Source: Escherichia coli
Lineage (GTDB): Bacteria > Pseudomonadota > Gammaproteobacteria > Enterobacterales > Enterobacteriaceae
Assembly (NCBI RefSeq): GCF_003334765.1
Contig: NZ_QOWT01000006.1
Direction: 5' to 3' (one strand)
Length of the DNA: 64,000 nucleotides
Shown here: piece after piece, positions 41,745 to 47,594 of the stretch
Layout: the number at the start of each line of letters is the position of its first letter
Position numbering within the stretch: position 1 is the first letter of the stretch
Translations under genes and position numbers: made by a program
The notes under the pieces: generated by a model
Databases searched by the model: none
Told to the model about the DNA's origin: nothing
Seen by the model: the letters and a program-made list of their open reading frames with translations, nothing else

Positions 41745-42002
41745 TTACTGCTCTTCGCCGCCAAGGAAATAAATTCCCAACGGGATTGCCAGCAACACAG
41801 TAAAGACCAGGCTATAAACAAAAATCATCGATGACTGAATCACATACATTGATGTCGTCCACTCAGACAGCGGAATATTGTACTGTTCTATAACGCCGCC
41901 GATGGTCGCGCGAGTCACAACCGACGCCGCAATAATGAAAACCGCCAACAAACCAAAGAGAAATTTCTTCCCTTTCGCTGACTTCAGTTTCGCCATAATC
42001 AT
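41745..42002 (-). CDS. ynaJ: DUF2534 small inner-membrane protein
   Basis: 85-aa ORF with two predicted transmembrane segments; synteny. Confidence 0.8.
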   Translation of the reverse strand: MIMAKLKSAKGKKFLFGLLAVFIIAASVVTRATIGGVIEQYNIPLSEWTTSMYVIQSSMIFVYSLVFTVLLAIPLGIYFLGGEEQ

Positions 42003-42245
42003 GATGTAATCCTTGTGCAGACAAATTTCTTGTTACCTAAACGTAACAATACCATGACATTTCACCGTTGTCTGCTCTGAAAACCTCACCTCTTAGCTGG
42101 ATTTACAATCAACGCATTGATTAGTTAGCTAATGTTGCTACTTCCTTCCCTGACTATTGATGATCTGAATGAATTGTCGCGGTAAAATAGCCCCGCCAGG
42201 GGTTTCCGGCATGACGACAATTATCTGGAGGAGCCTGATAAAACA

Positions 42246-45277: not shown

Positions 45278-46177
45278 CTAAACAGCACCTTTATACTTCA
45301 GCCTATCTATAAATAATGAGAATGCCGAGCCAGCATGTCGACGGTGTGGATAGTACAGGTGATAACCGGGTAAATCTGGTGTGAATTTATCCAAAACACG
45401 TATCAGTTTTTTTTCTTTAATAGCCCGCTCAACCTGATCATAAGGTAGATACGCCAATCCATGCCCATCAATTGCAGCATCAATGATCAGGTCTATCGTA
45501 TTCAGTAAAAGCTGACCTTCCATGCGAACACGAACTTCACGTCCACCGCGTATTAATCTCCAGCGATTTGCTGTACCCGATGTGGGAAGATACAAATTAA
45601 TTGCCTGATGATCTATTAATTGTGACACTGACGTTGGAACACTTCGGCGAGAAAAATAATCCGGTGAGCCAACAATAGCCATTGGTATATCTGGCCCGAT
45701 TCGAATGGCGATCATATCTTTATCCATCTCCCCACCCAGACGGACGCCTGCATCAAAACGTTCAGAAACGACATCGGTCAAACCATAATCAATGGTGAGC
45801 TGAATATCAATTTCAGGATGCGATTTCAGGAATGTGCGCATTGCTGGTAACAATATCGTTTTTGCTGCATGTTCTACAGTAGTAATACGTATTGTCCCGG
45901 ATGGGCGGTTCTGCAGATCGCTCAGGGATGCCATGGCTGAATCTATGTCATGCAACATAGGGCCAAGAACAGACAAAAGATGCTCGCCCGCTTCAGTTGG
46001 AACAACGCTGCGCGTGGTTCGCGTCAGAAGCCGCAATCCCAATCGTTCTTCTATACGACGCACTATCTGGCTTAAAGCTGACTGCGCCATGCTCAGGCGG
46101 GCTGCTGCACGAGTGAAGCTACGCTCCTCTGCAACGACGACAAACGCCATCAGATCAGCGATTTCTTCACGCTTCAT
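45278..46177 (-). CDS. pgrR: LysR-family regulator of peptidoglycan recycling
   Basis: 299-aa ORF with N-terminal LysR HTH; divergent from ycjY. Confidence 0.88.
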   Translation of the reverse strand: MKREEIADLMAFVVVAEERSFTRAAARLSMAQSALSQIVRRIEERLGLRLLTRTTRSVVPTEAGEHLLSVLGPMLHDIDSAMASLSDLQNRPSGTIRITTVEHAAKTILLPAMRTFLKSHPEIDIQLTIDYGLTDVVSERFDAGVRLGGEMDKDMIAIRIGPDIPMAIVGSPDYFSRRSVPTSVSQLIDHQAINLYLPTSGTANRWRLIRGGREVRVRMEGQLLLNTIDLIIDAAIDGHGLAYLPYDQVERAIKEKKLIRVLDKFTPDLPGYHLYYPHRRHAGSAFSLFIDRLKYKGAV

Positions 46178-46201
46178 TCAGTATCTCCATGCAATCTATT
46201 A

Positions 46202-46244
46202 ATCATTTAAATGATAGGTCTAATCATGATTTTGGGTCTAATCA
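46202..46244. promoter_or_regulatory. candidate PgrR operator: 14-bp palindrome ATCATTTAAATGAT plus two GGTCTAATCA direct repeats
   Basis: Palindrome at 46202-46215; direct repeats at 46217-46226 and 46235-46244 in the pgrR/ycjY divergent region. Confidence 0.4.
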
Positions 46245-46302
46245 ACTTAATGATCAATATCTATAGTGATATCACCAACCGTTAAAACGAACCGACAACT
46301 CC

Positions 46303-47260
46303 ATGAGGAACGGAATGATGAATAATAAAGTCAGCTTCACTAACAGCAATAATCCAACCATCTCTTTGTCTGCAGTGATCTATTTCCCTCCAAAATTTGA
46401 TGAAACCCGTCAGTATCAGGCAATTGTGTTATCTCACCCAGGTGGGGGCGTTAAAGAACAAACGGCCGGAACCTATGCCAAAAAACTGGCGGAAAAGGGA
46501 TTTGTCACTATTGCTTATGACGCATCTTATCAAGGTGAAAGTGGCGGCGAGCCGCGTCAGTTAGAAAACCCATACATTCGTACTGAAGACATCAGTGCCG
46601 TGATTGATTACCTGACAACGCTTTCTTATGTCGACAATACCCGAATTGGTGCGATGGGAATTTGTGCCGGTGCAGGATATACAGCCAATGCTGCAATTCA
46701 GGATCGCCGCATCAAGGCCATCGGTACCGTTAGTGCGGTCAATATTGGTTCGATATTCCGTAATGGTTGGGAAAACAATGTGAAATCTATTGATGCCCTG
46801 CCATACGTTGAAGCGGGTTCAAACGCCAGAACCAGCGATATTAGCAGCGGAGAATACGCCATTATGCCACTGGCACCAATGAAGGAGTCCGATGCGCCGA
46901 ACGAAGAACTGCGTCAGGCCTGGGAGTATTACCACACCCCTCGCGCGCAGTATCCAACAGCACCGGGTTACGCTACTTTGCGCAGCCTTAAGTTACGCTA
47001 CTTTGCGCAGCCTTAACCAGATTATTACCTATGATGCTTACCATATGGCGGAAGTGTACCTGACTCAGCCGACGCAGATTGTGGCGGGCAGCCAGGCAGG
47101 GAGCAAATGGATGAGTGACGACCTGTACGATCGAGCATCAAGCCAGGATAAACGCTATCACATTGTTGAAGGCGCAAACCATATGGATCTTTATGACGGC
47201 AAAGCCTATGTGGCTGAAGCAATTTCAGTATTAGCTCCGTTCTTTGAGGAAACTCTGTAA
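46303..47260 (+). pseudogene. ycjY: ycjY (dienelactone hydrolase / S9-like hydrolase) disrupted by a 25-bp tandem duplication
   Basis: Track ORFs 46303..47016 and 46892..47260 are in different frames; deleting one 25-bp copy fuses them into one ORF of about 310 codons. Confidence 0.8.
46967..47016 (+). repeat. perfect 25-bp tandem duplication (GTTACGCTACTTTGCGCAGCCTTAA x2) inside ycjY
   Basis: Read directly at 46967-46991 and 46992-47016. Confidence 0.95.
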
Positions 47261-47325
47261 TGAAACATATTCAAATCCGCAATAGTGATATGGACTGGCA
47301 TATTGCTGCCAATAATCTGGGATAA
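47260..47325 (+). CDS. ymjD: 21-codon ORF (MKHIQIRNSDMDWHIAANNLG), possible deletion remnant
   Basis: ATG overlaps the ycjY stop (TAATG); name recalled from K-12 annotation with uncertainty. Confidence 0.4.
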   Translation: MKHIQIRNSDMDWHIAANNLG

Positions 47326-47330
47326 TTTTC

Positions 47331-47513
47331 ATGAAAAATGTACTGATTCTTGGTGCTGGCGGTCAGATAGCCCGCCATGTGATTAATCAACTGGCAGATA
47401 AGCAAACCATTAAACAAACTTTATTTGCCCGTCAGCCAGCAAAAATCCACAAACCCTATCCAACTAATAAAATGCAAACAACTTCCGGCAAAAAAGTGAT
47501 ACAAGATCGATGA
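47331..47513 (+). pseudogene. ymjC: N-terminal fragment of an NAD(P)-binding (NmrA-like) protein
   Basis: 60-aa ORF with Rossmann motif ILGAGGQIARH; truncated, and its 3' end runs into repeat copy B. Confidence 0.6.
47470..47499. repeat. 30-bp repeat copy B (AAATGCAAACAACTTCCGGCAAAAAAGTGA), 96-125 bp upstream of mpaA
   Basis: 28/30 identity to copy A. Confidence 0.8.
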
Positions 47514-47594
47514 CATAGCGTTGAAGAAAAGGATTTGATAATCCGCAAAATTTGCACAACACTGCCTGTAATACTTCCTGAACCAGAGACGATC

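Follow-up and report, generated by a model that had tools for sequence, protein, structure and literature searches.

The divergent spacer between the LysR-type regulator gene pgrR and the hydrolase gene ycjY of Escherichia coli is crowded with short symmetric and repeated words, and the question that it raises is whether these words are the site at which PgrR binds its own promoter, and at which bases it would do so. The window analysed here is a 64-kb stretch of E. coli DNA that contains the whole locus. An earlier note, made from its sequence, had taken a 14-bp palindrome and the direct repeats beside it for a LysR-type binding and activation site, through which PgrR would control both itself and the ycjY operon. 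Its assignment of the two genes was correct, as judged from the open reading frames and from the RefSeq annotation of identical DNA:

45278-46177, minus strand: pgrR (ycjZ), LysR-type transcriptional regulator of 299 aa.
46315-47260, plus strand: ycjY, alpha/beta hydrolase, the first gene of the regulated operon and frameshifted in this strain.

The closest database clusters to the regulator (99% identical) are named PgrR and carry PF00126 and PF03466. The protein has the LysR-type order of domains, with HTH_1 at the N-terminus and LysR_substrate at the C-terminus, in agreement with RefSeq. With pgrR on the minus strand and ycjY on the plus strand, regulator and target are oriented as at a LysR-type divergent promoter, and the spacer of 137 bp between them holds the palindrome and the repeats. 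The sequence belongs to E. coli: 5243 of 5426 complete genomes of the species matched a 2.2-kb query taken around these elements, the spacer is identical to that of K-12, and between 46178 and 47604 the sole difference from K-12 MG1655 is one 25-bp duplication in ycjY. The duplication is a perfect tandem (46967-47016, two copies of GTTACGCTACTTTGCGCAGCCTTAA) that shifts the reading frame, and RefSeq annotates ycjY as a frameshifted pseudogene in VE-F10, a strain that is 100% identical. In the interval between ycjY and mpaA (47270-47530), the counterpart of the K-12 mini-genes ymjD and ymjC is annotated in other E. coli genomes either as an "SDR family oxidoreductase", which is intact, or as a "NAD-dependent dehydratase", which is partial. 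The second gene of the operon has thus decayed in this lineage, with mpaA directly downstream.

A reading of the sequence and a script both recovered the perfect palindrome, the two direct repeats and the TAATCA and TGATCA words that the earlier note had described. The features to which we refer below are:

46199-46267, unstranded: conserved regulatory block of 69 bp, with the candidate operator sites and two overlapping, predicted divergent promoters.
46202-46215, unstranded: perfect 14-bp palindrome ATCATTTAAATGAT, of the form ATCA-N6-TGAT and its own reverse complement, at K-12 positions 1391953-1391966.
46217-46226, plus strand: GGTCTAATCA copy 1, direct repeat, spanning about -57 to -48 relative to the start predicted for ycjY, a candidate activation-site half.
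46235-46244, plus strand: GGTCTAATCA copy 2, direct repeat, spanning about -39 to -30 relative to the start predicted for ycjY.
46239-46254, plus strand: second, imperfect dyad TAATCAACTTAATGAT, also ATCA-N6-TGAT, centred at about -26.5 of the predicted ycjY start, a candidate distal or repressing sub-site.

The palindrome has the geometry of a dyad, with the centres of its ATCA and TGAT half-sites 10 bp apart. The word TAATCA starts at 46200, 46221 and 46239, so that successive copies lie 21 and 18 bp apart, or about two helical turns, and TGATCA follows at 46251-46256. Elements beyond those listed in the earlier note were also present: a repeat finder returned two related 16-mers 39 bp apart, TAATCATTTAAATGAT (46200-46215) and TAATCAACTTAATGAT, and there are two 10-bp palindromes, AATCATGATT (46222-46231) and GTGATATCAC (46266-46275). 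The T-N11-A signature is absent in its strict form, with no symmetric T-N11-A register anywhere in 46196-46220. Because the palindrome is of even length, its symmetry-related T/A pairs are T-N10-A and T-N14-A instead. T-N11-A is typical of LysR-type operators and not obligatory, and its absence marks a variant site format, not an exclusion from the class.

A palindrome of this length is not unusual by itself. Across the 64-kb window there are three perfect palindromes of at least 14 bp against 5.3 expected, and thus no enrichment. The clustering of this palindrome with other elements within 125 bp is remarkable. In 5000 dinucleotide shuffles of the stretch 46178-46302, ATCA/TGAT words (nine observed, 3.3 expected) gave P = 4e-4, a palindrome of at least 14 bp P = 0.015, three palindromes of at least 10 bp P = 0.0014, and a direct repeat of at least 10 bp P = 0.008. 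The palindrome of at least 14 bp and the direct repeat of at least 10 bp occurred jointly in 2 of 10,000 shuffles (P about 2e-4). The exact pattern TAATCA-N4-AATGAT occurs twice in the 64 kb, both times in the pgrR/ycjY spacer.

Of 5426 complete E. coli genomes, 5223 carry the spacer, and in 4383 it is at least 99% identical. Single-nucleotide differences in five sampled variants fall only at 46191, 46228, 46233, 46283 and 46294, of which 46228 and 46233 alone lie inside the conserved block, and they spare the palindrome, both repeats and CTATAGT (46261-46267). For comparison across genera we used PgrR orthologues of 85-88% identity from Citrobacter, Kluyvera, Pseudocitrobacter, Shimwellia and Serratia-labelled contigs, together with Escherichia sp. 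at 98%. Over nine lineages, mean column identity in the block was 0.94 and 49 of its 69 columns were invariant. Identity between E. coli and the other genera was 0.81-0.93 in the block, as against 0.19-0.55 in the pgrR leader and 0.49-0.71 in the ycjY leader.

Conservation inside the block is uneven. The palindrome and its flanks (46199-46216) are invariant in 17 of 18 columns, the exception being a central base that differs in a single genome; for copy 2 of GGTCTAATCA the figure across genera is 8 of 10 columns, and CTATAGT is unchanged in 12 of 12 aligned sequences. Copy 1 differs at two bases outside Escherichia and reads AGTCCAATCA in the Citrobacter/Kluyvera clade. In the second dyad the left arm and TTAAT are invariant, and the right arm changes from TGAT to TAAT, TGGT or TTGA between genera. 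TGATCA, AATCATGATT and GTGATATCAC all vary between genera, and 46228, inside AATCATGATT, varies also within E. coli. Together this indicates strong purifying selection on the palindrome and the second copy of GGTCTAATCA, both between genera and in the wider family; copy 1 and the small palindromes are lineage-specific. The conservation on which the earlier note's proposal depends is thus found for the palindrome and copy 2, but copy 1 is confined to enterics and TGATCA, AATCATGATT and GTGATATCAC are variable.

That PgrR binds somewhere in this spacer is established in the literature. Genomic SELEX found ycjY/ycjZ among the PgrR targets, with a regulon of ycjG, ycjXF-tyrR and ycjY-ymjDC-mpaA (PMC5934670), in agreement with the binding proposed in the earlier note at the resolution of the spacer. 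DAP-seq gave a PgrR fold of 5632 at the pgrR promoter, compared with 4413 for LacI at lacZYA (PMC10505187 Supplementary Data 6). In PPTP-seq, pgrR was negatively autoregulated: CRISPRi of pgrR raised the pgrR promoter, with a significant response of 0.97 in glucose, and a strain with tunable PgrR confirmed the effect (PMC10505187). These data show very strong binding of PgrR to the spacer in vitro, and repression of its own gene. The ycjY promoter gave values of 0.60, 0.28 and 0.34 on the same knock-down, each placed in the no-response class (PMC10505187), and the effect of PgrR on ycjY is weak under the conditions tested. Control of pgrR and the ycjY operon by PgrR, as the earlier note had it, is therefore borne out by the published regulon and the autoregulation, but the response of ycjY to knock-down is weak and non-significant. 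Its description of the site as one for binding and activation is supported in the first part, through PgrR binding in the spacer by genomic SELEX and DAP-seq and a dyad centred near -65 of the predicted ycjY promoter. The label of an activation site finds no support in the available data, since RefSeq names PgrR a repressor and the rise of the ycjY promoter on knock-down was weak and non-significant.

The published evidence resolves PgrR to the spacer, and we infer its base-level contacts from conservation and geometry. At other reported targets, the ycjG/tpx spacer and the region upstream of mppA gave no match to the motif at up to two mismatches over 12 specified positions, and the sfm and ydjE regions of K-12 gave only matches of 9/12, at background level. 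On these searches the motif looks specific to the pgrR/ycjY spacer. A separate observation concerns positions 42106-42123, 4 kb from pgrR. They form an 18-bp near-palindrome, CAATCAACGCATTGATTA (AATCAA-N4-TTGATT), in the spacer that separates ynaI from a divergent open reading frame of 85 aa (41745-42002, minus strand, probably ynaJ). The element is similar to the PgrR half-site TAATCA, but it came up only as a two-mismatch hit, of which about six are expected by chance.

The arrangement extends well beyond the enterics. Ten PgrR-like regulators of 55-70% identity from alpha- and gammaproteobacteria were all encoded divergently from a YcjY-like DLH/Peptidase_S15 hydrolase, and an eleventh locus, listed without its DNA, has the same gene order. 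The helix-turn-helix and recognition-helix segments of these distant regulators almost match those of PgrR. When the regulator-proximal part of the distant spacers was aligned with the enteric spacers (13 sequences, almost ungapped), the hydrolase strand showed a shared order of elements: TAnnnT, GATTAGA, a run of A (AAAA), TGCATGA, and CCTATCA-N6-TGAT(A)A. The E. coli palindrome is homologous to the CCTATCA-N6-TGATAA dyad of the regulator/hydrolase spacers in distant proteobacteria, and GATTAGA is copy 2 of GGTCTAATCA read on the opposite strand. Enteric copy 1 aligns with an unrelated TGCATGA(G/A)CC in the distant loci. Of the 12 loci in which the position could be read, 11 have 52.5-53.5 bp between the TAnnnT hexamer and the dyad centre.

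This homology is clear only through the ungapped alignment. In a k-mer enrichment of the ten distant spacers, with the 20 nt beside the regulator ATG removed, TATCA was not at the top and ATCTA/TAGAT, TTGCA and TGCATG came first. The distance to the regulator gene also differs: the dyad centre precedes the regulator ATG by 9 nt in the distant loci, where it overlaps a GAGG ribosome-binding site, and by 31-32 nt in enterics. In an Acuticoccus locus (L030, around 1165-1190), two tandem copies of TAGTTATAAGTG double the left dyad arm, which shifts the otherwise constant distance between dyad and -10. We also considered TTGTTAATTAACAA, a 14-bp palindrome beside a 58% homologue (L010), as a co-evolved operator and rejected it, as the counterpart in the alignment is ATTA-N6-TGAT beside the start codon. 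Separately, IncF plasmids and Citrobacter carry a PgrR-like regulator of about 88% identity, beside two tandem YcjY-like hydrolases and without mpaA. On the Klebsiella variicola plasmid NZ_CP103422.1 (L016, 3159-6049) the cassette also carries an SDR and a flavin oxidoreductase; a second such locus is L002, 321-2874. The spacer of these loci keeps the same palindrome. This suggests that the cassette is mobile and that the link to peptidoglycan is specific to E. coli.

To place the conserved elements with respect to transcription, we assigned promoters to both genes:

46211-46216, minus strand: TATCAT, predicted pgrR -10, inside the right arm of the palindrome, with a predicted start near 46204, which is K-12 position 1391964.
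46240-46235, minus strand: TAGACC, predicted pgrR -35, separated from TATCAT by an 18-nt spacer.
46262-46267, plus strand: TATAGT, predicted ycjY -10, invariant, with a predicted start near 46274, which is K-12 position 1391894.

In a promoter scan, TAGACC-18-TATCAT was the only sigma-70-like match in the region (9/12), and the same hexamers are listed for pgrR as a constitutive promoter (PMC3946193). The -10 positions keep TAT-A in 13 of 13 sequences of the enteric and distant alignment. We propose TATAGT as the ycjY -10 because the hexamer is invariant and lies at a family-wide fixed distance from the dyad; the hexamer at the corresponding -35 position would be TAATCA (46239-46244), which is weak. 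A different ycjY promoter, ATGATA-19-TCTAAT, has been proposed (PMC3946193), and in the actual sequence the spacer of that pair is 20 nt. Relative to the start predicted from TATAGT, the dyad centre falls at -65.5 and the two repeats at -57 to -48 and -39 to -30. Two hexamers fall within copy 2 of GGTCTAATCA: TAATCA at the ycjY -35 position, and the pgrR -35 TAGACC on the opposite, minus strand. The negative autoregulation of pgrR is consistent with a dyad over its predicted -10 and +1. The supplements of Cappable-seq and SMRT-Cappable-seq hold no mapped transcription starts at pgrR/ycjY, and the leaders gave no Rfam match to a structured RNA at E of 1 or below.

Holoenzyme SELEX has placed strong peaks of RpoE (intensity 17.2) and RpoH (4.4) in the spacer (46178-46314), and pgrR and ycjY were called RpoE-dependent (PMC5493296). 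A search of both strands of 46150-46330 for a sigma-E promoter (GGAACTT, 15-17 nt, then TCTGA, TCAAA or TCTAA) returned no pair that reaches 9/12, and the RpoE peak is at odds with a spacer that lacks a sigma-E-like -35/-10 pair.

The predicted promoter also touches on how PgrR is annotated. Many database "PgrR" homologues are given as 309 aa, started at an ATG inside the right arm of the palindrome (46204-46206 of the window, minus strand). This ATG is in frame with pgrR in the Citrobacter clade (L002, 2971-3900). In E. coli it opens an ORF of only 10 codons, whose TGA overlaps the pgrR ATG, and a pgrR start near 46204 would exclude it. The 309-aa start is probably an annotation artefact.

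We consider it likely that the block 46199-46267 is a PgrR operator laid over two back-to-back promoters, in which the palindrome would be the primary site and the downstream TAATCA elements would be secondary contacts; this assignment draws on sequence comparison. Half-sites 10 bp apart in ATCA-N6-TGAT would fit one dimer of winged-helix domains, and the palindrome is probably the high-affinity recognition site. On the pgrR promoter as predicted, it would cover positions from about -11 to +3, and PgrR bound over the -10 and start would block its own transcription. The centre of the palindrome, near -65 of the predicted ycjY promoter, would occupy the canonical LysR position. The other half of a PgrR tetramer could contact the downstream TAATCA elements, in copy 1, in copy 2 and in the imperfect dyad near -27. 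We hypothesize that PgrR on the distal element, over the spacer between -35 and -10, keeps ycjY-ymjDC-mpaA low, as in the reported repression. By analogy with BenM, CbnR and AtzR, we speculate that a ligand would shift the tetramer to the proximal element and so release or activate the promoter. A dyad arm doubles as the pgrR -10, and in distant loci the spacer and right arm of the dyad overlap the ribosome-binding site, so that the conservation could in part reflect other causes.

The most serious alternative is that the conserved words are mainly the core hexamers of two overlapping divergent promoters (TATCAT and TAGACC for pgrR, TATAGT and TAATCA for ycjY), with the symmetry as a by-product, and that PgrR contacts other or fewer bases. 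This would agree with the single sigma-70-like match being a listed constitutive promoter (PMC3946193), with the SELEX peaks that RNA polymerase holoenzymes alone yield in the spacer (PMC3946193, PMC5493296), and with the left arm of the dyad, which varies across the family in a -10-like manner (TATCAT, TATCAA, TATAAG, TATTAT). However, these hexamers leave the 49 invariant columns of 69 unexplained, as they do the conserved right arm TGAT, the bases that flank the spacer and the fixed 53-bp distance from the dyad to the opposite -10, and a 5632-fold DAP-seq peak needs a strong, specific PgrR site in the spacer. We regard this alternative as improbable, though it deserves some weight. The two readings are compatible in that the operator may overlap the promoter.

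It is considerably less probable that the ATCA/TGAT array is the site of another protein, such as a Fur-type box or a site for a nucleoid protein like H-NS. Positions 46213-46231 match the 19-bp Fur consensus GATAATGATAATCATTATC at 13/19, but the window holds 15 hits of at least 13/19 on its two strands, many of them inside genes, and the palindrome itself reaches only 11/19; Fur control of these genes is unreported in the literature searched. For H-NS, knock-down of hns raised the ycjY promoter in PPTP-seq (0.88, class 1; PMC10505187), and the G+C content of the spacer is 33%. Co-occurrence of the module with PgrR-like regulators across proteobacterial classes argues instead for the cognate regulator. 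As for the view that the short words came together by chance in AT-rich DNA and have no function, which the ordinariness of a 14-bp palindrome at the 64-kb scale and the variable AATCATGATT, GTGATATCAC and TGATCA would allow, the local joint P of about 2e-4, the experimental binding peaks and above all the fixed geometry kept across genera and classes make it barely credible, and the conservation data effectively refute it.

With a PgrR operator as the preferred reading, the spacer can be set beside known systems. At classic LysR-type divergent promoters a recognition site lies near -65 and activation sub-sites near -35, between which the tetramer slides, as described for BenM/CatM, CbnR, AtzR and OxyR. 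The pgrR/ycjY spacer is like these in that the regulator diverges from its target, in a dyad about 65 bp upstream of the predicted start that overlaps the negatively autoregulated pgrR promoter, and in weaker related elements at about -50, -35 and -27. It is unlike them in that its dyad is of even length and not T-N11-A, and in that PgrR is reported only as a repressor, without a known inducer. The NahR/DntR type of LysR box is TTCA-N6-TGAT. The PgrR site shares its format of 14 bp, with 4-bp arms, a 6-bp spacer and the same right arm TGAT, but its left arm is ATCA and not TTCA, which makes the pgrR/ycjY site perfectly symmetric. As far as they were compared, PgrR and NahR show no close kinship, and the resemblance is in site format only.

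In 2013 Shimada, Yamazaki and Ishihama (Genes Cells 18:123) reportedly carried out genomic SELEX of PgrR (YcjZ) that covered the ycjY/pgrR spacer of K-12, a region that also has entries in RegulonDB and EcoCyc. The DNA, the regulator and the targets (ycjY-ymjDC-mpaA and pgrR) are the same here, and as a regulator-target pair the locus is ordinary and already documented. What is added, some of which may already be in the 2013 paper, is the base-level anatomy, the proposed ycjY -10 TATAGT and the conservation of a module with fixed geometry across classes; the known category is unchanged.

More tentatively, and at somewhat less than even odds in our judgement, the spacer may be the E. coli copy of an ancient regulator-hydrolase module of fixed geometry that is spread through the alpha- and gammaproteobacteria and also carried on Klebsiella plasmids. 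PgrR would then ancestrally and mainly exert ligand-responsive control of a YcjY-type hydrolase, and of a neighbouring SDR oxidoreductase, of which ymjC/ymjD are the decayed remains in K-12. The link to mpaA and peptidoglycan recycling would be secondary, specific to E. coli and brought about by read-through, and the three TAATCA words would form a sliding-tetramer switch for an inducer.

The general picture of LysR-type regulation is left as it was. For this locus, comparison between genomes indicates at the base level which part of its own promoter a published regulator most likely occupies, and the analysis proposes a ycjY -10 that departs from the published prediction. Clear targets for mutagenesis are each arm of the palindrome, each copy of GTCTAATCA and the distal dyad. 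The family-wide conservation suggests that the primary regulon of PgrR is the hydrolase gene and not peptidoglycan recycling, which could guide the search for its ligand.
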